A stretch of 64,000 bases of DNA from Bacillota bacterium (GTDB lineage Bacteria; Bacillota; Clostridia; Christensenellales; CAG-138): NCBI GenBank assembly GCA_023435025.1, contig JAEYSE010000020.1, forward strand, positions 16,189 to 80,188, in the 5' to 3' direction. Positions 1,433 to 44,749 of this stretch are shown in pieces (position 1 is the first letter of the stretch; each line of letters begins with the position of its first letter). The notes under the pieces were generated by a model, which saw nothing but the letters and a program-made list of their open reading frames with translations, had not been told where the DNA came from and searched no databases. The position numbers and the translations under genes are program-made.

Positions 1433-1876
1433 TTAGCAAGCCGAAGATTTCGTTCGCTTTAGCTGATTCTTTCTCCGAATCAGCCAATAAATACCCCAGC
1501 TCATGAGGTTGCCCAAAACAGTGGGCGGCAGCAAGTACATAAGCATCATTTGCCGGGCAATCAGCCGGTCAGCTTCGTCTACTCTATAAAACAACCCAAG
1601 TACCAAAAAATAAGCGATAAAGAACAGGAACGCAACTGGAACAACGCGTTTATCCTGAAAGGGAATCATAAAAAGGCAGCAGATTCCGCATGCTAGGAGC
1701 GCAGCCGCGCTGGGACCAAGCCAGACCTCCCAGAAAGAACCCGTAACCGGTCCCGACAGCAGGATGGCGGGGAGCATGTATGCCAGCACAAATATCACAA
1801 TAAACAATAGGCTCATTGTAAAGCTGATGATCATCAGCGGGCTTTTTACTTTGCCGTCCTTCATGAAAAGTCCCAT
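1433..1876 (-). CDS. Small polytopic membrane protein, unknown function (paralog of 10064..10546)
   Basis: Hydrophobic segments throughout. The N-terminal region MKDGKVKSPLMIISFTMSLLFIVIFVLAYML aligns with TENGRVKSTLLIYSFSLSILFVAIYLLSYLM of the other copy. Last gene of the long operon. Start is uncertain (1876/1864/1927). Confidence 0.6.
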   Translation of the reverse strand: MGLFMKDGKVKSPLMIISFTMSLLFIVIFVLAYMLPAILLSGPVTGSFWEVWLGPSAAALLACGICCLFMIPFQDKRVVPVAFLFFIAYFLVLGLFYRVDEADRLIARQMMLMYLLPPTVLGNLMSWGIYWLIRRKNQLKRTKSSAC

Positions 1877-2025
1877 TTGTTTTCCGCCCTTCCCCATCAC
1901 CTGTAAAATCCGCTGATAAAGCCACAAAAGCCTTATCAGCGGATTTCTTTGGCGTTACGGGCTTTTGCTTTTATTGCTGATCTACGCTTACGCGTCAGAT
2001 TATACCCTCACAAAGAGAAAGTTGT

Positions 2026-3267
2026 CTAGCCCTGCAGAGAGATCCAGAAGTCCATGACGTCGGGGAGATTTTCGTAGACGTACATGGGGTTGAAATCCCA
2101 CACGTGCAGGTCGCTCAGCGGCGTGCTGCCTTCAGCCAGCTGCACGTTGTCACGTACGGACCAGCCGCCCAGCGTGTTGAAGGGGCTGAACCCTGCGCCT
2201 GTGCCATCGGCCTCGCCGGTCATCCAGCGGACCAGGAGCTTGGCCGCGTTGGGATGCGGGGCCTCATTGACGATATACAGGTTGTTCTGCGCGGGAATGC
2301 CGGTGGCGGGCAGCATGTTGATGGGCGCCAATACCCAGCCGTCGCTTTCGTTCTTGCGGAGCTTCGAGGAAGCGGCATAGCCGAGTATATCGGCCTTGGT
2401 GCCTGCCGTCCCGACGGACTCACAGATTTCGTCCGATGAGGCGATGAACACAAGGTCATTGGCGACCAGCCGCTTCATCAGCTCGTGGGCCGCGGTTGGG
2501 CAGCCTTCCGAAAGCGTAAGGGCCTCGCCGAACTCGCGCTGATAATCGGCCGCAAGTTCATCGTGGTAGGCGGTAAAGGCGGTGAATATGGCCATGTAGT
2601 TGATGTTGTCGATGGGGTTGCTGATCAGGAGCTTGCCTTTCCATTCAGGCCTTGTGAGATCCCACCAACTGTCTACCGGAGGTCCGTCCGGATATGCCTC
2701 GTAATTGTAGAACCACTGATTCAGCTCGATATAGAGGGGCATGGCGTAGGTTAGATAATTGGGGTTGCTGATTGTCTTGACGATGTCGTCGGGATAATAG
2801 TTGTGGAATATCCCGGTGGCTACCTTTTCAATATAGAGCCCGCCGTCCTGGTCTTTGCAGTGGATGACGTCCGCGTTGCGTATGCCCGATTCATATTCGC
2901 GGGTGATTTTCTCAAGGAGTTCATTGGTGGAAATGTCATACGCATCGCATATCACGCCGGGATACTGCGCTTCGAAGCTCTCCTTCACCTGCACGCAGCG
3001 GCTGGATATGGAATACAGCACGACTGTTCCTTCCTGCTTGGCAAGCTCATAAAGCTCGTCAACGGTTTGTGAACCGGTGGTAATCATGTTTTCTTCTGCC
3101 CAGGTGGTGACCGCCGGCTCCGGGAGAGGCGTAGCCTCGGCTTCTACTGCAGGCGCTTCGGAGGGAGGGGCTTCCTGCTCGGTTTGCACGGGCTGCTGTG
3201 CGCAACCGACACAGGATAGTATGAGCAACAACACGGTCAACAGTGAGATGATCGATCTGGTCTTCAT
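2026..3267 (-). CDS. ABC importer substrate-binding lipoprotein, FbpA/AfuA-like class (cassette 1)
   Basis: Lipobox LLILSCVGCAQ, a Pro/Ala/Glu-rich linker, then a family-1 solute-binding fold (TVVLYSISS...). About 35-40% identical by eye to the 10624..11928 product. Confidence 0.8.
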   Translation of the reverse strand: MKTRSIISLLTVLLLILSCVGCAQQPVQTEQEAPPSEAPAVEAEATPLPEPAVTTWAEENMITTGSQTVDELYELAKQEGTVVLYSISSRCVQVKESFEAQYPGVICDAYDISTNELLEKITREYESGIRNADVIHCKDQDGGLYIEKVATGIFHNYYPDDIVKTISNPNYLTYAMPLYIELNQWFYNYEAYPDGPPVDSWWDLTRPEWKGKLLISNPIDNINYMAIFTAFTAYHDELAADYQREFGEALTLSEGCPTAAHELMKRLVANDLVFIASSDEICESVGTAGTKADILGYAASSKLRKNESDGWVLAPINMLPATGIPAQNNLYIVNEAPHPNAAKLLVRWMTGEADGTGAGFSPFNTLGGWSVRDNVQLAEGSTPLSDLHVWDFNPMYVYENLPDVMDFWISLQG

Positions 3268-3350
3268 AGTTCCTCCTTATTCTATTGTCTTGCCCGCCGA
3301 TTCGTCCATCGGCAAACATTGCTTCATATGGAATCTCCGGCGGTCCTCCC

Positions 3351-4478
3351 CTATTCTGTAGCGGCGTATTTGAGCAGCTTGCCGGTTGCCTTGCTGTAAA
3401 CGGTAATCATACGTTCGGGTATCTGGACTCCCACCTTCTGATCGCGTTCATAGCTGGTAATACCAATTGCCTTGGCCAATAGCACCGTTGCGCCAATCTG
3501 CACCTGGACCAACGTTTCCGACCCGGCGGGCTGGCAGGCGTATACGGACCCTAAAAACGCGGTGTTCTCCGTGTTCTTGGAAACCGCGATATGCTCTGGC
3601 CGTATACCCAGTACGCAATCAAATTCGCCGGACTTCGGAAATTCGTTTCCGGTCAGGTCGCCTTGCTCAAACGCGAAGCTTCCAAGATCAGAGATCACGC
3701 GGAGTTTGCCGCCATCATGCTGCGCCTTGGCCTGCACCGTATTGATGCGCGGGTTGCCTATAAAATCCGCTATCCGAAGATCTGCAGGGTTGCTGTAGAC
3801 ATTGATTGGCGTGTCTACCTGAGCAAGCTCACCCTCAAAGAATATGGCGACACGGGTGCTCATGGTCAGTGCCTCAATTTGGTCATGGGTAACGTATATG
3901 ACTGTAGTGCCCAGCTCCTGGTGCAGGCGTTTGAGCTCGGAGCGCATATCGATGCGCAGCTTGGCATCCAGGTTAGAAAGCGGCTCGTCCAGCAGCAGGG
4001 TCTTCGGCTCGCTTACGATTGCGCGGGCAATCGCCACGCGCTGCTGCTGACCCCCGGAAAGCTCGCTCGGGTACCGGTTGACGTATTCGCCGATCTGTAA
4101 GCGCTCCAGCGCGTTTCCCACGCGCCGCTTGATCTCATCCTTTGGCACTTTTTTAATGCAAAGACCAAACGCAACATTGTCGAACACCGTCATATGCGGC
4201 CACAAAGCGTAGGATTGGAACACCAGATTCAGCCCTCGTTTGGACGGCGCTTCAAAGAACAGCTCTTCGGTGTTCACGACCTCGCGGCCGTCCATATGGA
4301 TTTTGCCTCTTTGCGGGCGCTCAAGGCCCGACACCACGCGCAGCGTGGTGGTCTTCCCGCAGCCTGAGGGGCCAAGCAGCGTCATGAACTCGCCGTCCTC
4401 AATCGTAAGATCCAGGCTTTTCAATACGTGGTTGCTTCCGTAATATTTGTCAATGCCCTGTAATACGATTTTGCTCAT
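3351..4478 (-). CDS. ABC importer ATP-binding protein (MalK/FbpC-like, with C-terminal regulatory domain), cassette 1
   Basis: Walker A GPSGCGKTT, signature LSGGQQQR, Walker B LLLDEPLSNLD, H-loop VTHDQ. Closely paralogous to 11963..13081. Confidence 0.92.
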   Translation of the reverse strand: MSKIVLQGIDKYYGSNHVLKSLDLTIEDGEFMTLLGPSGCGKTTTLRVVSGLERPQRGKIHMDGREVVNTEELFFEAPSKRGLNLVFQSYALWPHMTVFDNVAFGLCIKKVPKDEIKRRVGNALERLQIGEYVNRYPSELSGGQQQRVAIARAIVSEPKTLLLDEPLSNLDAKLRIDMRSELKRLHQELGTTVIYVTHDQIEALTMSTRVAIFFEGELAQVDTPINVYSNPADLRIADFIGNPRINTVQAKAQHDGGKLRVISDLGSFAFEQGDLTGNEFPKSGEFDCVLGIRPEHIAVSKNTENTAFLGSVYACQPAGSETLVQVQIGATVLLAKAIGITSYERDQKVGVQIPERMITVYSKATGKLLKYAATE

Positions 4479-4484
4479 TGTCCG

Positions 4485-6323
4485 TTAACCTCCCATACCT
4501 TTGGCGATATCCGCGTTACCAAACCGATTGGTCAGCCAATATACAAACAACACGATGAGGAACATGCACACCGCCACGACGTTGGAGTAAGGCTCCATAT
4601 TGCTGTTGGAGTACGAGAACGCCATGTACGGCAGCGTGGCCAGCTTGGGCGTTACAATCAATATAATCAGGTCGAGTTCCTTCATGATGCTGATGAATAT
4701 CAGCATAAAGCCCGAAATAAACCCTGCCTTGGACAGCGGCAACACAATACGCCCCATGCGTTTGCCAAAGCCCGCGCCTTCTATGGAGGCCGCCTCCTCA
4801 AGCTCCATACCGATCTGCATCATGTTGGCGGTACCCGCGCGGCTTGAGAAAGGCAGGTGTTTGACCACCGAGACCAGCACCATCAGCGCGAATGTGCCGT
4901 AGAGCGAGGGTATCAAAAGTTGAGGCTTCGAGAACATGGAAAGGTAAATCGCGCCGAATGCGATCGAAGGGATCAGGTAGGGCACGAATACCAGCTGCTC
5001 CACCAGGCGGCCGGATATTTTACCTCGGCCACGGGATGTGATATAACCGATCAACTGCCCGCACAGCGTTCCGATTACGGACGTCACGACCACCAGCTTG
5101 AGCGTATTCCATACATTGGTCCAGAACCGCGGGTTCGCGAACACGCCCGGTTCTCCTTCAAATACCTCTGGTAACTGGTGTGCAGCCCCGGCCCAGTAAT
5201 GGAGTGAAAAATTACTCCACGCGTAGACGCCCGGCTTGAGCATAAACGTATCGACCATCAGTATCATGAGCGGCCCGATTACTGCGACGCAAACAAACAG
5301 GACCAAGAGTATTAACAGAACCGGCTTTGCGGCGCCCAGCGAAATCAGCGTATGGCGCCCGCCTTTGCCGCCGATCGTAGCGTAACTTTTCCGCGCGCCG
5401 ATTGCCCGCTGGTTTAAATACACGTTGAGCGCGGCGATGGTAATCAATATCATGGCAATGGCGAAGCCGGTGGTGGTATTTTGCTGTTTGACGGTGGAAT
5501 AGAGCATGGTGGAAATGGTGTAGTAATTTACCTTCATGCCGAGGAAAGCCGGTACGCCGAATGTACCCATGGATTTGGAGAATGTGAGTATGAACGCGGA
5601 AAGTATGGCAGGCAATACAAGCGGCAGCGTAATCCTTTTTAATATTTGAAACTTGCCCGCTCCCGCAATTTCGCCCATTTCCTCAAGCTCACTGTTGATG
5701 GACCCAAGCGCAGCCGATACCAGCAGGTAGGCATACGCGTAATAGTGGACGGTCAGCACGATAATGATCGGTATGGGTCCATAGGCCAGCCAGTCCGGCG
5801 TATCAATGCCTAAAGACGCCAGAAAGCCCATCGATCCGCCCACACGCGCGTTTTTGAACACCGCCATCCATGCCATGGATTTGCACCAGGAAGGCAGCAT
5901 GTATGGAACGATGATCGCGAGCGAAAAAAACTTCTTGAATGGAAGATCGGAGCGCACCATCAGCCACGCGATGCCCGCGCCCAAGCCGATGCTCAGCACG
6001 GATACCGTAATGGCAATCACCAGCGAGTTTACTAGCGGCTTGTACAAAAGCGAGTTGCTGACCTCTGTGAACAACAGGCGGTTCCAGTAAAACAGCGTGA
6101 AGTCTCCGACTTGCGCGCCGGGAATACGGCGAAGATCCTTGTTTGCTGCCTGGAATGTGGTGGAGATCATCTCCAGCAGCGGCACCACAATCAAATACGC
6201 CAGCAGTACAATGGCGACGATTACGATAATGTTGTACGGATTGGTAAACGTATTGATTAAGCCGTTCTTAAATCGTCTGCTTCGTGAAAACCCAAGTGAT
6301 CGCGGGACAGATTCGGGCCTCAT
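4485..6323 (-). CDS. Fused two-domain ABC importer permease (FbpB/AfuB-like), cassette 1
   Basis: 612 aa with two tandem transmembrane halves. Collinear paralog of 13127..14953. Start moved to the ATG at 6323, preceded by AAGGAGGAGCAA. Confidence 0.88.
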   Translation of the reverse strand: MRPESVPRSLGFSRSRRFKNGLINTFTNPYNIIVIVAIVLLAYLIVVPLLEMISTTFQAANKDLRRIPGAQVGDFTLFYWNRLLFTEVSNSLLYKPLVNSLVIAITVSVLSIGLGAGIAWLMVRSDLPFKKFFSLAIIVPYMLPSWCKSMAWMAVFKNARVGGSMGFLASLGIDTPDWLAYGPIPIIIVLTVHYYAYAYLLVSAALGSINSELEEMGEIAGAGKFQILKRITLPLVLPAILSAFILTFSKSMGTFGVPAFLGMKVNYYTISTMLYSTVKQQNTTTGFAIAMILITIAALNVYLNQRAIGARKSYATIGGKGGRHTLISLGAAKPVLLILLVLFVCVAVIGPLMILMVDTFMLKPGVYAWSNFSLHYWAGAAHQLPEVFEGEPGVFANPRFWTNVWNTLKLVVVTSVIGTLCGQLIGYITSRGRGKISGRLVEQLVFVPYLIPSIAFGAIYLSMFSKPQLLIPSLYGTFALMVLVSVVKHLPFSSRAGTANMMQIGMELEEAASIEGAGFGKRMGRIVLPLSKAGFISGFMLIFISIMKELDLIILIVTPKLATLPYMAFSYSNSNMEPYSNVVAVCMFLIVLFVYWLTNRFGNADIAKGMGG

Positions 6324-6428
6324 TTGCTCCTCCTTAACATGTACTGGTTGGCTTTGCGAAATTACAAAAGAGACATTTTGGCTGAATTGTGCGCTTAAAG
6401 GTGTGTTTGGCCGCAACGCCAAGAAATG

Positions 6429-7469
6429 CTACAGGCGACAGGTTACTACCACTGCGTCGTGGTCGGAAAGTTCCTGGCCGTCGTATATGGAAAGCTCCTT
6501 CGGCTGTCCGGATAGTTCCGTGTGCTTGAATACTGTCTCCACCCGCAGGGGGTTGGAGCAGGTAAGCCCTTTCTGGAAGAACCAGTCCAAATTCAGGCGG
6601 ACGGTGGAGCCGTCGGGCATAGGCTTTCTTCTTGTGGTTTTGTTCATCAGGTTACAATCCGTATACGAATACCCGAATTCTTCCGCGCAGCGCATCAAAG
6701 GCTCCAGCGTCGGGATAATCGCCAAGCGGCGGTCTTGCTCCTCCTCGTTGTGGTAGAACACATTCATGCTGCCCAACGTATCCCCGTTTACGGTATTGGT
6801 GTTCATATCGCCGCCTACCAGTATTGGGATATTGCCGAAATGCTCGTCGGCGCATTCCAAAAGGTAGCGAAGTTGCCGCTCGCGTTCTTCCGGCGTTGCC
6901 CGGTTCTCAAGATGCACGCAAACGAGGCCTATGCGCCTCCCTGCAGCTTCTATTTCCGCCAATATCGCAACCCGCGTCCCCAGGCGGCAGTCATTTTCGC
7001 GGTAAAACCAATCGTACATAATGGGAAGATGCACAAGCTTTGCGTTATGCAAGGGGTATTTTGATAATATGGCATTGCCGTGCCAGCCCAGCGTGTTGCC
7101 GCCCTGGCCCGCCTTGGCGGTAATAAATTCAATGCCGTAGGCATAATTCATGCCGAGCGCTTCCGCGATATCCCGCGTGACATGCTTGTTGTTTGAGCGC
7201 GCCATGCCGTAATCAAGCTCGTTGGCAAGTATGATGTCCGCGTTGCAAAGGTCTGGATGCAGCTGCAAGTAGGGCATGATTTTTTCGGGGCGCGTGCCGC
7301 ATTCCATGTTAAATACCGTTGCGATAAAGGAGGGATCTTCCTTTTTTGCATACGAATTGTTCACTTCAACGCTGAACAATTCCGGTATCCCGGAGATTGC
7401 CTTTAGATGCGGCATCTGGCTCATATTGCTGATTGCGTCCTGTATTCTTTTTAAGTAGTTCTCGGACAT
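6429..7469 (-). CDS. Endonuclease/exonuclease/phosphatase (EEP) family protein, cytoplasmic
   Basis: EEP-type motifs ANELD, GGDMNTN, LDWFF, SDHDAVVV at the C-terminus. No signal peptide. RBS GGGAGGAAAGAC before the ATG. Confidence 0.75.
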   Translation of the reverse strand: MSENYLKRIQDAISNMSQMPHLKAISGIPELFSVEVNNSYAKKEDPSFIATVFNMECGTRPEKIMPYLQLHPDLCNADIILANELDYGMARSNNKHVTRDIAEALGMNYAYGIEFITAKAGQGGNTLGWHGNAILSKYPLHNAKLVHLPIMYDWFYRENDCRLGTRVAILAEIEAAGRRIGLVCVHLENRATPEERERQLRYLLECADEHFGNIPILVGGDMNTNTVNGDTLGSMNVFYHNEEEQDRRLAIIPTLEPLMRCAEEFGYSYTDCNLMNKTTRRKPMPDGSTVRLNLDWFFQKGLTCSNPLRVETVFKHTELSGQPKELSIYDGQELSDHDAVVVTCRL

Positions 7470-7494
7470 GTCTTTCCTCCCAGTGACAAAATAA

Positions 7495-8418
7495 TTATTC
7501 GATCACAAAACGAACCCTGGAATGATACTGAGCCTCTAACCCCAATATGGAAACCGCATCTGTAAACTGAATGCAACCGGCATATTGCTGTAACAACGCG
7601 ATCGCCTCGGCGGACGGGCGGTTGTCCCCCCGGTCATTGGAAACAGAGACTACGGCGTGTTCGGGTCGAAGCTTTTTGAGAAGCTCTTCGGTCAGGGCAC
7701 CCCCGCAGGCGTGATGCGGAACTTTCAGGATATAGCAGGGGTCGTTTTGCTCATAATCCCAAAATTCACTGTAAACGTCTGCAGGCAGCACGATATCCCG
7801 TCCATGATAGGAAAGGCGCAGACGAATACCTGTGATGTTGGTGAACCGCCCCACAAAATCCAGTTCAAAGCGGTCCGGCCTTCCCAACAGGGCGTCATCC
7901 AGCACGCGCCTCTGGCGGGCATAGAGATACTGCTGCTGGCAGGAGATGTCGGTAAAAAGCCCGGGCGTCAGGCAATACCCTTTCCGGCTTTCGTGTACCT
8001 CCTTGAGCCTGCACCCGCACGCCTGAAGCGGTTGCACCGCATCGAGCAGCATGTTGAGCGTATGACATACGCTCTTCGCAGTCTTGGAGTAATCATCCCC
8101 CGGCTTCAGGCGAACGGAGCGCAAGTCGGGGGTCGGCAGGTAAGGCGTCCAAAGCTCATCGATTTCGGCCTGATTGAAAAGCTTCTCCATGCCGCCGATG
8201 TGATCGCGGTGCAGATGCGTCAATACCAGCAGATCGATATGCGAAACGCCTTCTTCGCGCAGATACGTGGCTGCATCGATCCGCCTGGAGTTTGGCTGAA
8301 CGCTGCCGGGCGTAGTATCCCCGCAGTCCACCAGCATACAGAAATGAGAGGAATCCTCTTGCTCCCGGATGAGTATGGCGTCCCCATACCCAATGTTGAT
8401 AAAATCGATCGTCAGCAT
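7495..8418 (-). CDS. MBL-fold metallo-hydrolase, ComEC C-terminal-domain-like (stand-alone)
   Basis: NIGYGDAILI, HxHxDH motif THLHRDHIGG, later KVPHHACGG. No signal peptide or TM segment. Paralog of 43639..44589. Confidence 0.8.
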   Translation of the reverse strand: MLTIDFINIGYGDAILIREQEDSSHFCMLVDCGDTTPGSVQPNSRRIDAATYLREEGVSHIDLLVLTHLHRDHIGGMEKLFNQAEIDELWTPYLPTPDLRSVRLKPGDDYSKTAKSVCHTLNMLLDAVQPLQACGCRLKEVHESRKGYCLTPGLFTDISCQQQYLYARQRRVLDDALLGRPDRFELDFVGRFTNITGIRLRLSYHGRDIVLPADVYSEFWDYEQNDPCYILKVPHHACGGALTEELLKKLRPEHAVVSVSNDRGDNRPSAEAIALLQQYAGCIQFTDAVSILGLEAQYHSRVRFVIE

Positions 8419-8448: not shown

Positions 8449-9261
8449 CTATCCGGCTTGGTCCGTATAGGTACCGCGGCAGAACATCCGGGGCGCAAGC
8501 AGCAGCGTTTCCCGCTCTGCGCCTTGGCACAGGCGTTCCATCAAAGACACTGCATGGGTCTCAAGCGCAAAGCGGCCGCATCCCACGCTGGTCAGCTTGT
8601 ATTTGGACAACGATGCGAGCGAAACATCCCCGAACCCAAGAAGCGCGATGTCCCTGCCCGGCCGCAATTCCCGCTCCACAATCGCCTGCCATGCGCCAAA
8701 GGCGGTAAAATCATCCTGGGCGGCAATCACCGTGGGCATGCCTCCATCCAGAAGGCTGCGTGTCGCGCAGTAGCTATCCTGCAGTGAGTTTCCCGCAACC
8801 GCAACCGTATGGACGGCGCTGCAGGGGATGCCGCTTTTTTGCGCCCCCAGCAAAAAGCCTTTGAGAAGTTCATCATGGCAGGATGTGGGGTGAAACAGGA
8901 ACACAAGTTTTCTGTGCCCGTTTTTCATCAGGCGTTCCGCGGCCAAAGTGCCTGCTTTTTTCTCATCCATAGAAACAAAACTTATGGATGCGTGCGAGGC
9001 GTTTTGGCCAACAAATACGACGGGAACGCGCAATCCTTCATACAATGCCTTGCTTTGCGCCTGTACCGGCATGGCGAAGATGCCTGAGACATTCGCCGCA
9101 ATCAGCCCGTTTAGGAACCGGGCCTCATTTTTAAAATCCCCCTGCGCGTTACAAATCAGCAGGCAGTCCCCCCGCCTCTCCAGTTCACGCGCAATGTTTT
9201 CAGCGGTTTCCGGATAAAACGGGTTGATGTCGTCCGGAATGATCATGCCATATTGCTTCAT
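8449..9261 (-). CDS. LacI/PBP1-type sugar-binding (effector) domain protein lacking the N-terminal HTH
   Basis: The product begins MKQYGMIIPDDINPFYPE, which is the first strand of the LacI effector domain. The start ATG overlaps the HAD stop (ATGA), and the DNA upstream is HAD coding sequence, leaving no room for an HTH. Confidence 0.7.
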   Translation of the reverse strand: MKQYGMIIPDDINPFYPETAENIARELERRGDCLLICNAQGDFKNEARFLNGLIAANVSGIFAMPVQAQSKALYEGLRVPVVFVGQNASHASISFVSMDEKKAGTLAAERLMKNGHRKLVFLFHPTSCHDELLKGFLLGAQKSGIPCSAVHTVAVAGNSLQDSYCATRSLLDGGMPTVIAAQDDFTAFGAWQAIVERELRPGRDIALLGFGDVSLASLSKYKLTSVGCGRFALETHAVSLMERLCQGAERETLLLAPRMFCRGTYTDQAG

Positions 9262-10022
9262 GCCGTCTTGTTTTCCGCCTCGCGCAGCATTTTCAATATG
9301 GGATATACGTCGTAAATCTCGTTGAGCCTGTAGTCCGGCTGAACGCCGTCCGTACGGGCGTCCCGGTCCGCGGTAAGGAACGAGTCGATTTGCAGCGTAA
9401 GGCCAAACCCGGCGTTTTTGGCGCCTATGACGTCCCGGGATATGGTATCCCCGACATAGGCGCAGTTCTCGGCTTTTGCGCGCATCTGATGAAGCGCTAT
9501 CAAGAATATATTGGAGTTGGGCTTGCGGTAGCCAACTACGCTCGAAAGCGTGACGTCCTCAAAATAAGAGCGAATTCCGTATTCCTCCAGCGTCTCGAAC
9601 ACCTGAAACATGCTGGCGGTGTTGCTGATAACGCCCATCCGCATTCCCATTTCCCGCAGGCCTTCGAGCATTTCCTTTACGCCCGGGCGCATTTTGCGCG
9701 TATAATATGTGATTTCCCACATATAGGCCAGTTCCTCGGAAATGGAAGCCAGTTTCTTCTTATCCACAGGTAAAAAGGGCAAAGCGTATTCCGGCCAGAT
9801 CTGATCGGGTTTTAACTCGACACATGTTTGTTCGCCTAGGATTTTATACCGCTTCATGCCGGCAGATACTTCCGCCCAAAGCGCCGCATCGTCCATAGAC
9901 AGGCAGATGTCATACTTTTGAAGGATACGGCGTATCCCCTTTGCGGTTTCCGCCATCGTTTTTTCGTCGCTGTAGATTTCCTCGAGCGTACCGCCCATGT
10001 CGAACAAGACAGTATCGATCAT
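9258..10022 (-). CDS. HAD-superfamily hydrolase (subfamily IA-like), motif I DxGxT
   Basis: Motif I LFDMGGTL, motif II VISNT, motif III RKPN, motif IV VGDTISRDVIGAKNAGFG. RBS AAGGAG. Confidence 0.85.
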   Translation of the reverse strand: MIDTVLFDMGGTLEEIYSDEKTMAETAKGIRRILQKYDICLSMDDAALWAEVSAGMKRYKILGEQTCVELKPDQIWPEYALPFLPVDKKKLASISEELAYMWEITYYTRKMRPGVKEMLEGLREMGMRMGVISNTASMFQVFETLEEYGIRSYFEDVTLSSVVGYRKPNSNIFLIALHQMRAKAENCAYVGDTISRDVIGAKNAGFGLTLQIDSFLTADRDARTDGVQPDYRLNEIYDVYPILKMLREAENKTA

Positions 10023-10063: not shown

Positions 10064-10546
10064 TCAATGCTTCTTTTTGTACTTTACGTACAGAAGCGTG
10101 GATACTGCGCCGCCAATCACAAGAGGCGGCAGCACAACCATGGAAAAGAGGCCTAAGAAAGTGGGCATTTCATTTTGCGTAAGGCTTACTGCAATCCCTA
10201 TGCCTCCCACAAGTGCGTAAAACAGCAAGAAGAGATAGGCGCCGGGTACGAGCCTTTTCTCCTTGACCACAAAATGTAACGAACAGCACAGCGCGGTTCC
10301 CGCGATTGCGGGAAGAACGCTTTCAAGGAACGTGGTGAATTTCGTCCCGATACGCGGCAGGAAGAACGCGTCGATCGGGTCAATGAGCATCAGGTACGAA
10401 AGCAGGTATATTGCAACGAACAGAATGCTCAGCGAGAAGGAGTAAATAAGCAGCGTGCTTTTTACCCTGCCGTTTTCGGTAAACAGAAATATGCTCCAGA
10501 ACTTATCGGCCTTTGTCTGTTTCCGGACTGCCTTTGCCTGATCCAT
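10064..10546 (-). CDS. Small polytopic membrane protein, unknown function (paralog of 1433..1876)
   Basis: About four hydrophobic segments. Occupies the same position (immediately after the binding-protein gene) as its paralog. Start at 10546 is preceded by AAAGGAAG. Confidence 0.6.
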   Translation of the reverse strand: MDQAKAVRKQTKADKFWSIFLFTENGRVKSTLLIYSFSLSILFVAIYLLSYLMLIDPIDAFFLPRIGTKFTTFLESVLPAIAGTALCCSLHFVVKEKRLVPGAYLFLLFYALVGGIGIAVSLTQNEMPTFLGLFSMVVLPPLVIGGAVSTLLYVKYKKKH

Positions 10547-10623
10547 GGATTTCAATCTTCCTTTTGAATGCGGGCGGGCAGTGCCCGCCCGCATCCGGTT
10601 TTTTTAGTTCTATGGTTGCGCTC

Positions 10624-11928
10624 TTACATATTGGGGTTCTGGTCGAGCCAATAGACCCAGAAGTCCTGAACGTCGAGGAATATGTCATACACGCCCTTCA
10701 TGTTGCCCGGTATGGCGCCGCTTTCCTTCACGGAGAACGGATTATTGGGGTTGACATAATCGTCGCGGATGGACCAGTTGCCCTGTTTGGTGAACGGCTC
10801 AAAGCCAATGCCCTGGCCGTCCGCTTCGCCCATCAGGAACCGGATGAAAAGGCGCGCGCCCGCGGGGTTGTCGCAGCCGGTTACCACATACAGGTAATTG
10901 CAGTTCTGCACGTTGGGATAGGGCAGAAGCTTCGTTACCCAATCAATGGTATAGCCGTTTTCCTCGCGGTTGGTGATCTTACCCGCAGAGCAGAAGCCCA
11001 GCCTGGGCTTACTCGGGTCGGTCGCGGCGTTGACGGCTTCCACGATTTCATCACCGTCGCCTATGAACGTCAGTTTCAGCTGCGAGAGCCTGTACAGGAA
11101 TTCATAGCCCGCGTTCTTTTCAGGGACGTTCGCGGTCTTCGTGCTGTCATAGGTATACTCTATGGGCTTGCCGTACTTGGCTTCATATGCCTGCGCCAGC
11201 TGATCGGCGTTGAGTATCATGCTGGAGTAGAATGTCAGGTAGGTGGGGTCGGCAGACAGGTTTTCGCATACGATATCATATTTCTGGTTGCCATTTGCGT
11301 CCAGTTCAATGATATCCCACCAGTTGGAGACCGGTGCGCCGTTGGGGAATGCCGTGGTGTTGTAATACCAGAAGTTCATGCTCGCATAGAACGGCATGCC
11401 GTAACCCAGCAGGCTGGGATCGATGTGCGAGACGATATCGCTGGGATAATACGTTTCAAGATAACCAAACGGGAAAAAGTCGTAGTAGATTTCGCCGTTG
11501 CCGTCCTTGCACTGCAGGACGTCCGCATTGATATTACCGGATTTCGCTTCAATCTCAATCTTGCTTACCGCTTCCCCCTGGTCCAGGTCGATGGCTTCGG
11601 CGGTCAGCCCCGGGTATGCTTCCATGAACGTATCACAGGTTTTCTGCATGCGGCTGGAAATGGTATAGACGGTTACCTTGCCGCCCTCCTTTTTTGCCTG
11701 CTCATAGAGCTCTGCCGATGTCATGTTGTTCCATTTGTCATCGGTAACCACATTGGAGTCAGTCGCCTCGGGCGCGGCGGTAGCTTCGGCGGCAGGGGCT
11801 GCTGGGGCTGCGGGCGCTGCGGGTTCCGGAGTAGGATTGCTGCTGGCGGGAGCTGTAGGCGTACATCCTACCAATGCCAATGTGCAAACCATTAATACAA
11901 CCAGGGTAAGCGTGAGCAGTTTCTTCAT
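10624..11928 (-). CDS. ABC importer substrate-binding lipoprotein, FbpA/AfuA-like class (cassette 2)
   Basis: MKKLLTLTLVVLMVCTLALVGC lipobox, PAAPAAPAAPAA linker, KVTVYTISS... fold. Start trimmed to 11928 (RBS GAAAGGAG). Confidence 0.8.
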   Translation of the reverse strand: MKKLLTLTLVVLMVCTLALVGCTPTAPASSNPTPEPAAPAAPAAPAAEATAAPEATDSNVVTDDKWNNMTSAELYEQAKKEGGKVTVYTISSRMQKTCDTFMEAYPGLTAEAIDLDQGEAVSKIEIEAKSGNINADVLQCKDGNGEIYYDFFPFGYLETYYPSDIVSHIDPSLLGYGMPFYASMNFWYYNTTAFPNGAPVSNWWDIIELDANGNQKYDIVCENLSADPTYLTFYSSMILNADQLAQAYEAKYGKPIEYTYDSTKTANVPEKNAGYEFLYRLSQLKLTFIGDGDEIVEAVNAATDPSKPRLGFCSAGKITNREENGYTIDWVTKLLPYPNVQNCNYLYVVTGCDNPAGARLFIRFLMGEADGQGIGFEPFTKQGNWSIRDDYVNPNNPFSVKESGAIPGNMKGVYDIFLDVQDFWVYWLDQNPNM

Positions 11929-11962
11929 GGCTGTTCTCCTTTCAGTTATATAAACCCTGCGG

Positions 11963-13081
11963 TTATACCGCAAGCTTGATAAGCTTCCCGCATGCCTTGT
12001 CATAAACATTGAGCTTTCCGGGATCTATAACCAAGCGCACCTTTTCGTTGATTTGGTAGTCCATGATGCCGATCTGCTTGGAAAGGAATTCGGCGTTGCC
12101 TACGGTCAACGTAACCAGCGTTTCGGAGCCTGCGGGCTGGCTGGCGTAGATGCTTGCCTCTATCCCGTCGCCGGTGCCGCCCCGCTCAATACGTACCTGC
12201 TCGGGGCGCAGGCCGAACACGCAGGGGAACTCTCCGGAAGGCAGGGGCACATCCGACATGTCCTTTTTGCAGTAGCGGAACGTGCCAATCGCGCAGGCGG
12301 CGGTCAGATGATCGCCGTCGTAGGACGCGGTCCCCTGAAGGAAATTGATGCGGGGGTTGCCGATGAAGTCTGCCGCCATCAGGGTGCCGGGGTTCATATA
12401 CAGATCCAGCGGCGTTGCGACCTGGGCCAGTACACCCTCGGAATACAGCGCGATCTTGGTGGACATCGTAAGCGCCTCCACCTGGTCGTGCGTGACATAT
12501 ATGATGGTGGTACCCATTTCGTTGTGCAGACGCTTCAATTCGGAACGCATGTCGATGCGCAGCTTGGCGTCCAGGTTAGATAGCGGTTCGTCCAATAGCA
12601 GCAGCTTCGGCTCGGAAGCGATGGCGCGGGCGATCGCCACGCGCTGCTGCTGGCCGCCGGAAAGCTCGTTGGGGTACCGCTTTTCGAATTCGCCGATCCG
12701 CATCATTTCCAGCGCTCTTTTGACCATCTTGTCAATTTGGCTGGCGGACATTTTTTTAATCTTCAGGCCGAACGCCACGTTCTCGTATACCGTCATATGC
12801 GGCCAAAGGGCATAGCTTTGGAACACAAGGTTGAGCTCGCGTTTGCTCGGCTCCTCAAAATAGGCGAGGTCGCAGTTGATAACCTCCCGCCCGTCCATGC
12901 GCATAATGCCGTTCTGCGGCTTTTCAAGCCCCGAAACCACGCGCAGCGTGGTCGTCTTTCCGCAGCCTGACGGCCCCAATAGCGTCATGAAGTCTCCGTC
13001 TTCGATCGTCAGGGACAAATCCTTTAATACATGGTTGTCGCCGAAATACTTGTCAATATGCTCCAGTTCGATTCTACTCAT
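11963..13081 (-). CDS. ABC importer ATP-binding protein, cassette 2
   Basis: Walker A GPSGCGKTT, LSGGQQQR, LLLDEPLSNLD. High identity to 3351..4478 along the full length. Confidence 0.92.
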   Translation of the reverse strand: MSRIELEHIDKYFGDNHVLKDLSLTIEDGDFMTLLGPSGCGKTTTLRVVSGLEKPQNGIMRMDGREVINCDLAYFEEPSKRELNLVFQSYALWPHMTVYENVAFGLKIKKMSASQIDKMVKRALEMMRIGEFEKRYPNELSGGQQQRVAIARAIASEPKLLLLDEPLSNLDAKLRIDMRSELKRLHNEMGTTIIYVTHDQVEALTMSTKIALYSEGVLAQVATPLDLYMNPGTLMAADFIGNPRINFLQGTASYDGDHLTAACAIGTFRYCKKDMSDVPLPSGEFPCVFGLRPEQVRIERGGTGDGIEASIYASQPAGSETLVTLTVGNAEFLSKQIGIMDYQINEKVRLVIDPGKLNVYDKACGKLIKLAV

Positions 13082-13126
13082 TGCGTATTTTCCTCTCTTT
13101 CCGCATTCACAAACGGCTTAAACTAA

Positions 13127-14953
13127 TCAACCCCAGCTCTTGCCGATATCGGCGCCGCCGAATTTATTGGCAACCCAGTAAGATACCAGCACGAATAAAA
13201 GCACACATACCGAGATCGCGTCAGCCATCTGGGGGAGCGCCTCGCGCGAATATTGGAATGCGAGATACGATAGCGTACGGTTCTCCGGTGTGATCAAAAG
13301 TATAATAAGATCCAGTTCTTTCGCGATGCTGATGAATACAAGCATAAAACCCGAAAGGAAGCCCTGTTTCGCAAGCGGTATGATGATCCGCCCCATTCTT
13401 CGCCAGAAGCTCGCGCCTGCGATATCTGCGGCTTCCTCCAGCTCCACCCCGATCTGCATCATATTCGCGGTCCCCGCACGGCTTGCGAATGGGAAGTGCT
13501 TGACCACGCTTGCCAGCACGAGCAGCGTGAATGTGCCGTACAGGGATGGAATAATGCCGTGCGGCATGCTCCACATGGCGAGGTAGATCGCCGCAAACGC
13601 GATGGCTGGCATCAGGTACGGGATAAACACGAGCTGCTCGGTGAGCTTCCCATACCATTTCCCACGGCCGCGAGAGCTGATATATCCCAGGAACTGCCCG
13701 CAAAACGCCGTGATAATCGATGAGATAAGTGTGAGTTTGATCGTGTTCCACAGGCCCCTTGAGAATTCCTGATTTTTGAATATGCCCGGATAATGGCTGG
13801 TGGTGCTGGAAAAATCAGCGTCGCCAATCCAGTTGTATAGCGTCAGGTTGTCTAGCCCGTAACCTGCGCCCGTGCTTTTCTGGAACGTTTCCATGACCAG
13901 TATGAACATGGGCATGAACATGGCGATGACCAGAAACAGGGCCAGGAATATCATGATATACGGCTTGGCCTTGCCCAGCGGGATGAGAGCGTGCTTGGTG
14001 CCCTTGCCGCCGAGCGTTTCATAGGACTTTCGTGTGCCCACCAGCCGCTGGTTCGCGAATATGGTGCCCGATGCCAGAACGATTAAAAGCAGCGCCATTG
14101 CGTAGCCAAGCCCTGCCTGCCTACCGTTGATGCAGTCGTGCATTTTGGTGGCCAGCGTGAAGTAGCCGATGCGCAAGCCCAGGTTGGCGGCCACGCCGAA
14201 GGAACCCACGGATTTTGAAAGCGTCATGATGGTTGCGGATAGCACCGCGGGGGCGACTAGAGGCAGCGTAATGCTTTTTAATATCTGCAGCTTGCTTGCA
14301 CCCTGTATTTCGCCCATTTCTTCAAGTTCGCTGTTGACGGAGCGGAGAGAGCTTGAAACCATAATGTAAGAGAAGGCGTAATAGTGCAGCACCATGACCA
14401 GTATGATCGCCACCGGACCATACGCCAGCCAGTCCGGTATGGTCAGCCCCAGGCCCTCTAAAAAGCCGGGCGAGCCGCTTCTTGCGTTGCGGAATACCGC
14501 AAGCCAGGACATCGCTTTGCACCAGGACGGTATCATGTAGGGAACAATGATGCCGATGGAAAGAAATTTCTTCCCCGGTAAATCGCTGCGCACCATTACC
14601 CAGGCAAGTATCGAGCCTAGTGGTACGGAAATGAGCGCCGTAAAAAAGCCTATAATCAGGGAGTTGATCAGCGGCTTCCAGAGCGTAGCTGAGGAAAGGT
14701 TGCTCGCGAAAAGCTGCTTCCAATAATAGAGCGTGAAGTCCCCAACCTTGCCGTCCACACGCCTTAATTCACTCGCTGCGAGCGTGAATGTGGTCCGGAG
14801 CATCTCGATAAGTGGGATAACGATCAGCACAATTAACAGCACAAGGGAAATCAGCACAATCATGTTGAACGGATTCTTAACGACCTGCAGGACCTTGTTT
14901 TTGATCTTCACTGTGGACCAGGGCTTCTTGGCCTGTTTACCGCTCACGTTCAC
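13127..14953 (-). CDS. Fused two-domain ABC importer permease, cassette 2
   Basis: 608 aa, collinear with 4485..6323. Many shared blocks, e.g. SIGIIVPYMIPSWCKAMSWLAVFRNA vs SLAIIVPYMLPSWCKSMAWMAVFKNA. GTG start (14953 or 14947). Confidence 0.88.
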   Translation of the reverse strand: MNVSGKQAKKPWSTVKIKNKVLQVVKNPFNMIVLISLVLLIVLIVIPLIEMLRTTFTLAASELRRVDGKVGDFTLYYWKQLFASNLSSATLWKPLINSLIIGFFTALISVPLGSILAWVMVRSDLPGKKFLSIGIIVPYMIPSWCKAMSWLAVFRNARSGSPGFLEGLGLTIPDWLAYGPVAIILVMVLHYYAFSYIMVSSSLRSVNSELEEMGEIQGASKLQILKSITLPLVAPAVLSATIMTLSKSVGSFGVAANLGLRIGYFTLATKMHDCINGRQAGLGYAMALLLIVLASGTIFANQRLVGTRKSYETLGGKGTKHALIPLGKAKPYIMIFLALFLVIAMFMPMFILVMETFQKSTGAGYGLDNLTLYNWIGDADFSSTTSHYPGIFKNQEFSRGLWNTIKLTLISSIITAFCGQFLGYISSRGRGKWYGKLTEQLVFIPYLMPAIAFAAIYLAMWSMPHGIIPSLYGTFTLLVLASVVKHFPFASRAGTANMMQIGVELEEAADIAGASFWRRMGRIIIPLAKQGFLSGFMLVFISIAKELDLIILLITPENRTLSYLAFQYSREALPQMADAISVCVLLFVLVSYWVANKFGGADIGKSWG

Positions 14954-15000: not shown

Positions 15001-15783
15001 TTAGTGGCTTTCATTACGATGGCTTTCATTATAGGACCGGATAATGCCGATAACCTCCGGCAGCGCTTTTATGGTATAGTCCGGCTGGTAGCCGCACCCT
15101 TCAAGCTTGCGTTCACGTTCCAGCACATGCGGCTTTGCTTCGCTGAACAATATGCGTATCATCAGGCCCCATCCCGCGTTCTTTACGCCGATGACGTCCC
15201 GTGAAATGGTATCTCCCACATAGGCCATTTCCTCGGCCTTCAAACCCATGGAATTCCTGCAAAGATCGAATATTCGCCTGTCCGGCTTTCTCAGTCCGCA
15301 TACGCTGGATAGGAGTATATACTCAAAGTAGCCGGAAACGCCGTATTCCTGCAGGAAATGAGGCGCATACGTCCTCGAAAGCGTGTTGCTGAGTATGGCC
15401 AAGCGCATGCCCTGCTCTCGTAGACCCTGCAGGCACTCGTGCAGGCCCTCTCGCGGAGCGTCTTGCGCGTGGTTACACCAAAGAAAGCTTAAGTCCTCTG
15501 AAATGGGGAACAGCTGCTCTGTTGTCGCGCCATAATCCTTTAAAAAGAAGTTACGCCATGCCTCAAGCGGGGGGATTTCCTCTACCAGTTGTTCGGAAGC
15601 ACGCTTGCGGGCATGGTCGGCTTCCGAGAGTTTTAAGGCGAAAGTCTCGACTGGGTCGGGTATGCGAACTCCTCGGAGCTCAAGAAGATTTTTGATCTTT
15701 CTCGCACAGAGAAGGTGTCGTTTCGGGTCTTCTGTCAATGTGTGAATGACGCCGCCCATATCAAATACAACTGCCTGAATCAA
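15001..15783 (-). CDS. HAD-superfamily hydrolase, motif I DxGxV; first gene of the long operon
   Basis: VVFDMGGVIHTL, ILSNT, RKPD, VGDTISRDVIGVKNAGWG. Preferred start is the TTG at 15783 (RBS AAGGCGGG, 8-nt spacer). The track ORF extends to a TTG at 15855 that has no RBS. Confidence 0.8.
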   Translation of the reverse strand: MIQAVVFDMGGVIHTLTEDPKRHLLCARKIKNLLELRGVRIPDPVETFALKLSEADHARKRASEQLVEEIPPLEAWRNFFLKDYGATTEQLFPISEDLSFLWCNHAQDAPREGLHECLQGLREQGMRLAILSNTLSRTYAPHFLQEYGVSGYFEYILLSSVCGLRKPDRRIFDLCRNSMGLKAEEMAYVGDTISRDVIGVKNAGWGLMIRILFSEAKPHVLERERKLEGCGYQPDYTIKALPEVIGIIRSYNESHRNESH

Positions 15784-15884
15784 AGAGTTCACCCGCCTTG
15801 CGGTTTGGTTTAAAGGTAGGACTGGAATGGAATAGCGGTCTGAATTATGTGACAATTAGAATGACAGTGGATTGGAATGGTTTA

Positions 15885-19898: not shown

Positions 19899-20789
19899 TC
19901 AGCCTTGATAAAATTCGTCGATATAAGCTTTCACCTGTTCGCGCGTACCCAGGAACGGCCCGGGCGTTTCCATCTTGAGCGATACCAAGGCCGAGGCCCA
20001 CAGCAGCGCCTCCGGAATATCCGCATACAGGCGTTCCGTGATATATCCGGAAAAGCAGGTATCCCCCCGGCCCGTGCGGCCAATCAGACTGCGCGGCTTC
20101 AACGGACAGGTATAGACTTTTTTTCCATCGTATACGAGCACTTCGGTGTTATGGGTAATCATGACCTCCTGCGCGCCCCATGCGTAGAGCTGCTTGGCGG
20201 CCTGTTCCCGGTCGGTCATGCCGGTCATTATTTCCGCCTCCGCGGCGTCCATCTTTAAAAAGCGGATCATGGGGAGGTAGGTAAGCTTCTCTTCCCAATC
20301 ATGGAACACCATGGTGCCATTTTCCTCGCACCTTAGCAGACATTGTACATCCACGGCAGCCATAGCCTTTTTTGCTGCGTAGGCGATGATTTCATTTCCT
20401 AAATCCCCCCGCATCAGACCGGCAATGTGATAGATGCTCGCGTCCACTTCTGGGATCTCGTTTACCGCGTACGGCTCTATGCGGCTGAGCATGGTGCAGG
20501 TACGCCTTTCACGGTCAGCGGTGTGGTAGACGTTTTGAATGGAGGTGCTGTGCGTGCTGTTAAGCGGGAAAACAGTGACGTTCTTTGCCCCTGAAAACAG
20601 GTTGTCTAAGTCCATATCAGCCTTGCTCGCCTTGGGTAGCGCTGCAACCGTTCGCCCCATGCCCGACGCCGCAAAGCCGGAGAATACAACCGCCCCGCCG
20701 ATCGCGCGAAGGGTTACGCCGTCATAATCCGTGTTGACGTCCAAACTGGGCTGGCCCAGAATGAATGTGTCGAATTTCTTTTTCCCCAT
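19899..20789 (-). CDS. PfkB-family carbohydrate/small-molecule kinase
   Basis: N-terminal ILGQPSLDV and the C-terminal anion-hole region GRTGRGDTCFSGY typical of the ribokinase/PfkB fold. Abuts the PHP gene with no gap. Confidence 0.75.
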   Translation of the reverse strand: MGKKKFDTFILGQPSLDVNTDYDGVTLRAIGGAVVFSGFAASGMGRTVAALPKASKADMDLDNLFSGAKNVTVFPLNSTHSTSIQNVYHTADRERRTCTMLSRIEPYAVNEIPEVDASIYHIAGLMRGDLGNEIIAYAAKKAMAAVDVQCLLRCEENGTMVFHDWEEKLTYLPMIRFLKMDAAEAEIMTGMTDREQAAKQLYAWGAQEVMITHNTEVLVYDGKKVYTCPLKPRSLIGRTGRGDTCFSGYITERLYADIPEALLWASALVSLKMETPGPFLGTREQVKAYIDEFYQG

Positions 20790-21518: not shown

Positions 21519-21537
21519 AGGTCCTCCGGGTTAAAAA

Positions 21538-39419: not shown

Positions 39420-40487
<1,068 letters not shown>

Positions 40488-40508
40488 GGTTGATTCTCCT
40501 ATTCGCGA

Positions 40509-41336: not shown

Positions 41337-41340
41337 AGGC

Positions 41341-42249: not shown

Positions 42250-42320
42250 CCCGCTGACAAAGCGAGGAGACTTTGTCAGCGGGTCTTAAAACATCCGCAA
42301 TACGGCGGGCCGTGTTTGTG

Positions 42321-43562: not shown

Positions 43563-43638
43563 TGATGACACCTCTTTCTTTTTTATTAAAGCGTTGCGCT
43601 TTAAAGAAAATGCGTTTATGCAATATCGAATATTGAAT

Positions 43639-44589: not shown

Positions 44590-44674
44590 GTTTGCTCCTT
44601 AAAATTTGCTTCGTTTTATGAAAATTGTGAAACAAATGAATGTCTGCGAACACCGCGCAAGATTTAAAAGAAAA

Positions 44675-44688: not shown

Positions 44689-44749
44689 TAAAAGCGGATG
44701 CGAAGAAACGAAAATTCGGCATTGTAAATATGGAGGATATCGGTGCGGA

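Follow-up and report, generated by a model that had tools for sequence, protein, structure and literature searches.

The 64,000-nucleotide stretch analyzed here (the window; contig JAEYSE010000020.1 of a Christensenellales genome, with all coordinates counted from its first position) encodes two neighboring minus-strand enzymes, a stand-alone metallo-β-lactamase (MBL)-fold hydrolase of the ComEC/Pce type (MBL1; 7495..8418, 307 amino acids) and an endonuclease/exonuclease/phosphatase (EEP)-fold phosphoesterase (6429..7469, 346 amino acids). Both lie within a run of 13 co-oriented minus-strand genes (15855 to 1433) that has a single near-consensus promoter (TTGACA-17-TATGAT at 15946-15918) ahead of its first gene, no convincing internal terminator, and gaps of 30, 25, and 6 nucleotides flanking the MBL1 and EEP genes. 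The two genes are predicted to be co-transcribed as one operon with ATP-binding cassette (ABC) importers that depend on substrate-binding proteins (SBPs). An earlier note on this DNA had described an MBL-EEP pair embedded in a transporter operon; the operon holds, but the pair is not a conserved unit. Because the MBL gene ends one importer module (A) and the EEP gene starts the next (B), the pair seen in the window is the head-to-tail joint of the two.

Module A opens with the first gene of the operon, a haloacid dehalogenase (HAD)-type hydrolase (HAD_a; 15001..15855), followed by importer cassette A (10624..14953) of the Fbp/Afu/PhnS/Pot-type family, which consists of a fused two-domain permease (13127-14953), an ATPase with a TOBE_2 domain (11963-13081), and the lipoprotein SBP_A (10624-12009). 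Behind the cassette come a small polytopic membrane protein (sm176; 10064..10594), a HAD-IA hydrolase (HAD_b; 9258..10022), a 270-residue LacI-family sensor domain lacking a helix-turn-helix (HTH) region (8449..9261), whose start overlaps the HAD_b stop, and, immediately downstream, MBL1 as the terminal gene. Module B opens with the EEP gene, which has a strong ribosome-binding site (GGGAGG), and continues into importer cassette B (1433..6422) with its fused permease (4485-6422), ATPase (3351-4478), lipoprotein SBP_B (2026-3267), and small membrane protein sm164 (1433-1927). All of these genes are on the minus strand, and cassettes A and B are paralogous (permeases 55% identical, SBPs 33-34%). 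Like the other components, sm176 and sm164, each of which trails its cassette, are paralogues (31% identity), and neither matches a known family.

MBL1 falls in the ComEC/Pce branch of its superfamily. Its translation contains the NIGYGDAILI, HLHRDHIGG, and KVPHHA motifs from which the earlier note had recognized a ComEC-type domain devoid of a membrane part, and this assignment was borne out in both sequence and fold. The protein passes the Pfam Lactamase_B model (PF00753; 33.6 bits, cutoff 22.7), Lactamase_B families are the only Pfam matches along its 307 residues, and no channel or OB domain was found. Its top NCBIfam model is ComEC_Rec2 (TIGR00361), at 51.1 bits against a cutoff of 190, which places it below ComEC/Rec2 membership, and its top PDB sequence matches are the ComEC MBL domain (9ic4; 3.4e-12) and full-length ComEC (9vc6 and 30bt; 8e-9), followed by CbpE/Pce. 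An AlphaFold (AF2) model built on 41 homologues (predicted local distance difference test [pLDDT] score, 94.5) and compared with the PDB by Foldseek gave ComEC (9IC4; 8.7e-18) and then Pce (2bib; 4.9e-15), with all other matches at 5e-8 or weaker. Residues H68, H70, D72, H73, N194, D214, K232, H235, and H236 are invariant in the 41-sequence alignment, and since these include the putative metal ligands, the metal site looks complete. The nearest relatives of MBL1 by profile or structure are phosphodiesterases (ComEC, Pce, Apyc1, YhfI, and tw9814), no orthology to a characterized unrelated enzyme was found, and neither MBL1 nor the EEP protein matches the glycerophosphodiester phosphodiesterase (GDPD) family (PF03009).

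Two other functions can be weighed against these matches. The MBL superfamily is chemically diverse, and MBL1 might act on an imported sugar derivative as a lactonase, sulfatase, or thioesterase (compare UlaG of the ula regulon), with the EEP enzyme in an unrelated role. UlaG is indeed among the Foldseek matches (2wyl and 2wym; E of ∼3e-7), but these lie ten orders of magnitude below ComEC and Pce, the close relatives are all phosphodiesterases, and the constant HAD, PHP, and EEP neighbors described below point to phosphate chemistry; we regard such a function as improbable. A role in defense or counterdefense, with MBL1 as a nuclease of the Lamassu, DRT, or Avs type or an Apyc1-like degrader of cyclic nucleotides, was raised by PADLOC and NCBIfam MBL matches (PADLOC LmuA, 62 bits; reverse transcriptase-associated MBL model, 47 bits) together with weak Apyc1 matches. 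We rejected it on gene context as very improbable, in that the locus has no LmuB/C, reverse transcriptase, or Avs NTPase partner, the neighbors are importer, HAD, LacI, and kinase genes in synteny across 19 genera, and the EEP protein has no PADLOC match.

A profile search of 1.84 billion representatives (50% identity clusters) returned 478 MBL1-family members with an E value of ≤1e-30, and the 150 best are single-domain proteins of about 300 to 345 amino acids with one exception. On this basis MBL1 represents a distinct stand-alone family rather than a fragment of ComEC, as judged from the sequences, even though the label "competence protein ComEC" is given to members in several databases; the assembly to which the window belongs (92% complete) yielded no full-length ComEC. 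The single long protein among the 150 best (P0335, 721 amino acids) is matched along four stretches and perhaps represents a tandem MBL duplication.

The enzyme encoded next to MBL1 has the EEP fold that had been claimed for it, passing the Pfam Exo_endo_phos model (PF03372; 32.2 bits, cutoff 24.5), giving an AF2 model with a pLDDT of 96.2, and matching 249 PDB entries in Foldseek with an E value of ≤1e-3. Its catalytic residues N54, E84, D221, N223, D295, D336, and H337 are invariant in 41 sequences, as are H186 and N189. Six arginines (R91, R162, R166, R190, R196, and R280) are also invariant and R281 and K282 nearly so, and this ring of positive residues suggests a polyanionic substrate. 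The structural matches form a series of near-ties at ∼1e-11 to 1e-14 with template modeling (TM) scores of ∼0.5, comprising the uncharacterized 4RUW, INPP5B, sphingomyelinase C, TDP2, nocturnin, ANGEL2, and CNOT6L, and a search of the PDB with the family profile ranked TDP2 (2e-6) ahead of sphingomyelinase C (3e-5), both of them phosphodiesterases. EEP homologues occur in Clostridia and Spirochaetes, including Treponema primitia (TREPR_1979). One metagenomic protein (P0219, 593 amino acids) is a natural fusion of an N-terminal EEP domain with a C-terminal HAD of the FDMGGT type; a second apparent fusion, of an ABC_tran and an EEP domain (P0238, 425 amino acids), looks like a chimera created by gene calling and was set aside.

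Both enzymes are predicted to be cytoplasmic. Neither has a hydrophobic N terminus, a signal peptide, or a transmembrane segment (maximum KD19 values of 0.99 for MBL1 and 1.40 for the EEP protein), in agreement with the earlier note, and the two lipoprotein SBPs, which carry lipoprotein signals, reach 2.5 to 2.6 on the same scale.

The importers suggest what kind of compound the two enzymes might meet. The top match of the permease is PhnU2, and importers of the AfuABC type carry phosphorylated carbohydrates (PMC4546632). A PDB sequence search found no solved SBP with significant similarity to SBP_A or SBP_B. HAD_b (TIGR02253/CTE7-like, with the motif I sequence FDMGGT) resembles the YjjG/CTE7 nucleotidase families and recurs as the constant neighbor of cassette A across the loci compared; such constant HAD neighbors, together with the natural EEP-HAD fusion, lend support to the proposal that HAD dephosphorylation follows the phosphodiesterase step. 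The trio of HAD_b, LacI sensor, and MBL is found again in 7 of the 30 family loci, which marks the HTH-less sensor as a conserved part of the set rather than a regulator in decay.

To compare gene neighborhoods, the window proteins were mapped by tblastn onto more than 120 loci, with precomputed Pfam contexts as a second source. Of 30 family loci, about 27 have the MBL gene directly behind importer-cassette genes. The adjacency seen in the window is thus clearly conserved, whereas its absence from other genomes would, by the terms of the earlier note, have refuted the proposed coupling. Immediately upstream of the MBL gene, 19 loci have sm176 or SBP_A, 7 the HTH-less LacI sensor or HAD_b, 2 the ATPase, and 1 the EEP gene; the last of the 30 has instead a PermA-like permease just behind the MBL gene. 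Loci L004-L006, L020, and L122 show the complete order (LacI-PHP-PfkB)-HAD-permease-ATPase-SBP-small membrane protein-(HAD-LacI sensor)-MBL, and the MBL-importer arrangement is seen likewise in L004-L006, L020, and L021. The MBL gene closes a different Afu-like operon in Neomoorella sulfitireducens and in one genome each of the Eubacteriales and Clostridiales; in two Pfam-scanned loci the order reads SBP_bac_6, fused permease, ATPase, and MBL (Neomoorella L022 and Eubacteriales L019), and a truncated spirochete locus also preserves permease-ATPase-MBL. Overall, synteny with importer and phosphatase neighbors is conserved across 19 genera, and the gene set is found in relatives of the Oscillospiraceae, other Clostridia, and spirochetes. 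A maximum-likelihood tree separates a CUT1-linked from an Afu-importer-linked MBL clade, with one Oscillibacter subclade having departed from the importer operon.

Two of these loci carry further genes beside the MBL gene. In L022 (5963-15501), the region beyond it encodes a 416-residue phosphofructokinase-family protein, a Pol-beta-NT+PHP protein, and a Na/Pi cotransporter-PhoU fusion. In L006 (11034-17629), a 337-residue protein without a family, a 998-residue purple-acid-phosphatase-like protein, and an H+-pyrophosphatase lie downstream, the last of interest given the pyrophosphate (PPi)-dependent kinase signature described below.

The relationship between MBL and EEP is one of shared membership rather than adjacency. 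The two genes are direct neighbors in only 3 of 30 genomes, G000, G035, and, in reverse order, G094, where the operon reads ...sm176-PfkB-EEP-MBL. The EEP gene is usually an operon head, followed by cassette B (L002, L050, L052, and L055) or by HAD genes and a gene resembling cofactor-independent phosphoglycerate mutase (iPGM; L001, L003, and L005). We examined co-distribution in 240 genomes of the family with Fisher tests, which ignore phylogeny and are inflated by shared ancestry (genus g44 alone contributes ∼25 genomes): all 30 genomes with the EEP gene also carry the MBL gene, which is present in 68 of the 240 (1e-19). Both occur on one contig in 15 genomes, 25 nucleotides to 15 kb apart, and genus g44 has a compact module in which the EEP gene faces HAD-permease-ATPase-SBP-sm-MBL. 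MBL and EEP thus belong to one conserved gene set although their adjacency is rare.

Further members of this set lie elsewhere on the minus strand of the window. The segment 22724..26587 encodes three HAD paralogues and, behind them, a permuted iPGM-like mutase that matches TIGR01307 at 460 bits in two stretches; this group of genes recurs in the contexts L003, L005, L048, and L121. An MgtC-family gene stands beside the gene set in three unrelated arrangements (L001, L005, and a locus elsewhere in the same genome, C90).

The genome has more than one locus of this kind. The window contains a second stand-alone ComEC-type MBL (MBL2; 43639..44589, minus strand, 316 amino acids), a true paralogue of MBL1 (28% identity, E of 2e-29), within an operon (39420..45745, minus strand) of LacI2, MBL2, a CUT1 SBP, two permeases, and an ATPase. 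Its position directly upstream of an ABC importer, to which the earlier note had drawn attention, is thereby upheld, MBL2 sitting between the LacI gene and the CUT1 set, and three other genomes (G035, G041, and G032) have retained the order LacI-MBL2-SBP-permease-permease-ATPase. MBL2 belongs to the separate clade whose members are always linked to CUT1 importers. Distant MBL2-like genes end loci with the order PfkB | LacI-permease-SBP-permease-MBL. That MBL2 belongs to a CUT1 "sugar" importer operon with no adjoining phosphatases in the window would suit the non-phosphate chemistry considered above; against it, the MBL2 operon of G035 continues into the operon of three HADs and the iPGM-like mutase. 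In that genome, which belongs to the same genus, the region is L109 7501-18000, whereas in the window the two operons are 13 kb apart.

Outside the window, C90:63971-72386 has a PfkB paralogue (75% identical to that of the window) and a LacI gene divergent from an operon of GDPD (C90:66420-67196), permease, ATPase, SBP, permease, and MgtC genes, so arranged that a classical glycerophosphodiesterase fills, by analogy, the niche that MBLs hold in other loci. A non-orthologous displacement, with orthologous importers at C90 and at the MBL2-like loci, was considered and rejected (27-29% identity); because the importers are not orthologous, the loci are analogous in architecture only. A third ComEC-type MBL (C112:9717-10694) has an N-terminal signal anchor and HPHADH, NDSS, GDAE, and HHGS motifs and is probably extracellular.

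The strongest lead to the substrate comes from a kinase. An operon at 19899..22545 (minus strand) encodes a LacI regulator (21538-22545), a PHP phosphoesterase (20790-21518), for which a PDB sequence search gave nothing useful, and a PfkB-family kinase (19899-20789) that is closest to TM0415 (E of 1.7e-38), a PPi-dependent myo-inositol kinase (PMC5931981). In the alignment the window protein keeps four of five PPi-signature residues (K171, R229, R232, and M266, with F221 replaced by L) and the TM0415 acceptor residues I76, N78, and L116 (S89 replaced by C), making it a candidate PPi-dependent kinase. Among the 240 genomes, 66 have both MBL and PfkB, 2 MBL only, 6 the kinase only, and 166 neither (3e-49), and the two genes are typically 7 to 8 kb apart. 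The MBL gene is also associated with the inositol catabolic gene iolD (39 genomes with both, 29 with MBL only, 11 with iolD only, and 161 with neither; 7e-17), which is present in 39 of 68 MBL carriers and 11 of the 172 other genomes, often 7 to 30 kb from the MBL gene. In three Oscillibacter genomes MBL abuts iolG with iolE, iolD, or iolB nearby, although the arrangements differ. The iol link in genus g44 is one of neighborhood (∼7 kb) and not of an operon, and in G168 the genes between the MBL module and iolD gave no Pfam matches on the translated strand. Just upstream of window position 1, C77:10676-16431 encodes a LacI protein and, on the plus strand, a Zn-alcohol dehydrogenase (399 amino acids), a creatininase-family protein (372 amino acids), and a GFO/IDH/MocA oxidoreductase (339 amino acids) that is 27% identical to an IolG; these genes may form a further operon for a polyol or cyclitol next to the regulon.

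Taken together, it is quite probable that MBL1 and the EEP enzyme, whose genes co-distribute with HAD, PHP, and PfkB genes, are soluble cytoplasmic metallo-phosphoesterases that act on small organophosphates once these have been taken up by the two flanking Fbp/Afu-type ABC importers. The chances are about even that their substrates are of an inositol type, such as glycerophosphoinositol-type diesters or cyclic or poly-phosphorylated inositols. The full model, in which importer-coupled phosphoesterases act on imported and probably inositol-type phospho(di)esters, is the one we somewhat favor. Under this model, a lipoprotein SBP would catch an anionic phospho(di)ester and hand it to the importer for delivery to the cytoplasm. 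There MBL1, whose HxHxDH...N...D...HH site is complete, would cut a phosphodiester with a binuclear metal center (Mn or Zn), as ComEC and Pce do, and the EEP enzyme, with a complete Mg2+/Asp-His apparatus and its arginine ring, would cut the phospho(di)ester of a polyanionic substrate. The HAD paralogues would strip leftover phosphomonoesters, and the freed cyclitol would pass to the TM0415-like kinase and, in the ∼57% of MBL genomes that have iol genes, into inositol catabolism.

Several observations weigh against this model. The inositol-type substrates are drawn from the neighboring genes only, and ComEC-type MBLs of known activity are nucleases, with defense nuclease models matching MBL1 as well as ComEC does. 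The EEP enzyme has no specific nearest relative, its TM scores being similar for many EEP classes, and INPP5B is one among many equal matches. INPP5 phosphatases bear two signatures, WxGDxN(F/Y)R and P(A/S)W(C/T)DR(I/V)L, both of which are absent from the EEP protein, where the equivalent sites read LVGGDMNTNTV and RLNLDWFFQKG. Partnership of the two enzymes is not obligatory, since Treponema, Lachnospiraceae, and Christensenellales have the EEP set but no MBL, and the inflation of the co-occurrence statistics by shared ancestry also counts here. The genome to which the window belongs lacks iolB, iolE, and iolD, so the fate of released inositol in this organism is unexplained and the inositol reading rests, for this organism, on the kinase and on relatives. 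The true acceptor of TM0415 is itself uncertain, and its Km for inositol is high (PMC5931981).

The main rival to the inositol-type model is nucleic acid salvage, in which the importers would bring in oligonucleotides or nucleotides, MBL1 would be a ComEC-like 5'-3' nuclease, the EEP enzyme an ExoIII/TDP2-like nuclease or 3'-phosphatase, the PHP protein a nanoRNase or pAp phosphatase, the HADs nucleotidases, and PfkB a ribo- or nucleoside kinase. This accords with ComEC as the closest characterized homologue of MBL1, with the matches to defense-system MBL nucleases, with TDP2 as the top PDB match of the EEP profile, and with the resemblance of HAD_b to YjjG/CTE7 nucleotidases. The isolated ComEC MBL domain (9IC4) is an Mn2+-dependent 5'-3' exo/endonuclease, with Pce as its closest relative in structure (PMC12455585). 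Its affinity for DNA is, however, undetectably weak and an OB fold is needed for substrate capture (PMC12455585), a fold that MBL1 lacks. Nor does the MBL1 family conserve the serine (S728) that helps to bind substrate in ComEC, the position reading HHAC in MBL1 and C, S, or H in other members; in RNase J, a conserved serine binds the 5'-phosphate. The importers are of the SBP-dependent small-molecule Fbp/Afu type, the kinase is TM0415-like and not ribokinase-like, MBL is linked to iol genes, and no nucleoside phosphorylase or deaminase genes were present in the neighborhoods seen. We consider nucleic acid salvage unlikely. Of the candidate substrates listed in the earlier note (oligonucleotides, glycerophosphodiesters, or teichoic-acid-like fragments), the first is thus disfavored, and the list omits inositol phospho(di)esters, the strongest lead from the TM0415-like kinase and the iol co-distribution.

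A general scavenging of phosphorus, in which assorted organophosphates (sugar phosphates, 2,3-bisphosphoglycerate, or phosphonate-like compounds) are imported mainly for their phosphate with no link to inositol, is also doubtful. It would account for the many phosphatase-type genes at the locus, the phosphate (Pi) transporters or PhoU-like genes adjoining some loci (L048 and L022), the match of the permease to PhnU2, and the binding of sugar phosphates and pyridoxal phosphate by AfuA relatives. It sits poorly with control by LacI-type substrate-responsive repressors instead of Pho boxes and with the co-distribution of the gene set with the inositol-kinase-like PfkB and its enrichment with iolD, and two to three dedicated importers with 8 hydrolases seem too elaborate for such a purpose.

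A more ambitious extension of the inositol-type model, which we hold to be speculative and unlikely, is that the whole gene set works inside the cell to take apart inositol polyphosphates that have been imported (phytate and what its partial degradation leaves) or else inositol phosphodiesters. The MBL, the EEP clade, the PHP protein, and the HADs lacking Asp+2 would then be new classes of position-specific inositol-phosphate phosphoesterases, the permuted iPGM-like mutase would move phosphates around the ring, and the TM0415-like kinase, running in reverse, would save part of the phosphate-bond energy as pyrophosphate. This would explain why the genome to which the window belongs retains the system without iol catabolic genes and with an ABC exporter alongside. 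We know of no phytase class with an MBL, EEP, PHP, or such a HAD fold.

The observations of the earlier note were confirmed in every point, whereas its interpretation is partly supported. The lack of precedent that it had asserted for the MBL-importer pairing applies to these enzyme families and not to the underlying logic, which is known from ugpBAEC-ugpQ, from PhnP, and from the GDPD-importer locus C90. What appears new is the recruitment of a stand-alone ComEC-type MBL family and an EEP clade to an importer role the near-perfect link of this set to a PPi-kinase-like enzyme, and the spread of the system over Oscillospiraceae relatives, other Clostridia, and spirochetes. ComEC-type MBLs have so far been known as DNA-uptake nucleases, one pneumococcal surface esterase, and defense nucleases; here they would be the cytoplasmic partner of nutrient importers. 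If the proposed substrates are right, the set would give Clostridia and spirochetes of the gut, rumen, and termite gut an undescribed route to use inositol phosphoesters, which would derive from plant feed, host lipids, or other microbes. The uptake and processing of inositol phosphates by gut bacteria are poorly known. A literature search on phytate, inositol phosphate, ABC transporters, and the gut found no description of a characterized cluster of this kind, and in a keyword check of a recent review of inositol derivatives in the gut the term "ABC transporter" was not used and the displayed uses of "uptake" referred to host cells. The model also proposes ligands for two orphan SBP families and functions for an EEP clade that is so far uncharacterized, and even with a mundane substrate it would annotate several hundred "hypothetical MBL / ComEC family" genes mislabeled as competence proteins.

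Among known systems, ComEC is the best match of MBL1 in both sequence and fold and shares with it, in order, the HxHxDH-type motif, the Asn-containing strand, the Asp, and K-x-P-H-H. Unlike ComEC, MBL1 is stand-alone and predicted to be cytoplasmic, without the channel and OB parts; the HPDADH of Moorella ComEC is replaced in it by the canonical HLHRDH, its insert between motifs (residues 84-192) is ∼45 residues larger, and its genomic setting is one of import and catabolism instead of competence. The teichoic-acid phosphorylcholine esterase Pce/CbpE (2BIB and 1WRA), the second structural match, is a ComEC-like MBL that cuts a small phosphodiester head group and not nucleic acid, but it is secreted, bears choline-binding repeats, has another substrate context, and is only 15-17% identical to MBL1. 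PhnP, from the phn (carbon-phosphorus lyase) operon, is an MBL-fold cyclic phosphodiesterase encoded with an organophosphorus ABC importer; it belongs to the tRNase Z/ElaC-like branch, a PhnP-family diphosphatase (6b9v) reaches only ∼1e-5 in Foldseek, and the window locus has no carbon-phosphorus lyase genes. The EEP enzyme shares its fold and the catalytic Asn, Glu, His, Asp, Asn, Asp, and Asp-His with TDP2, sphingomyelinase C, INPP5B, nocturnin, and 4RUW, and differs from known EEP classes in having helices of its own at the N terminus (residues 1-45), an inserted helical segment (∼228-278), and the family-specific set of invariant arginines. The inositol catabolic operon of TM0415, unlike the gene set described here, includes neither MBL nor EEP.

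A parallel in operating logic is the ugpBAEC-ugpQ system of Escherichia coli, which couples glycerophosphodiester uptake to a cytoplasmic GDPD phosphodiesterase, and the loci in the window appear to follow the same principle with different enzyme folds. As in that system, an ABC importer operon carries or ends with a cytoplasmic enzyme, here recognized from the operon, the conserved adjacency, and the lack of export signals, with phosphodiesterase chemistry that we infer. The folds are MBL and EEP in place of GDPD, the importers are of the Fbp/Afu type (MBL1) or CUT1 type (MBL2), and regulation is by LacI rather than Pho. The hexose/heptose-phosphate importer AfuABC, which serves organophosphates, resembles the window cassettes in its fused permease, PotA/UgpC-like ATPase, and Fbp-like SBP (PMC4546632), to which the window cassettes, with SBPs unlike those solved to date, add a small membrane protein and dedicated hydrolases.

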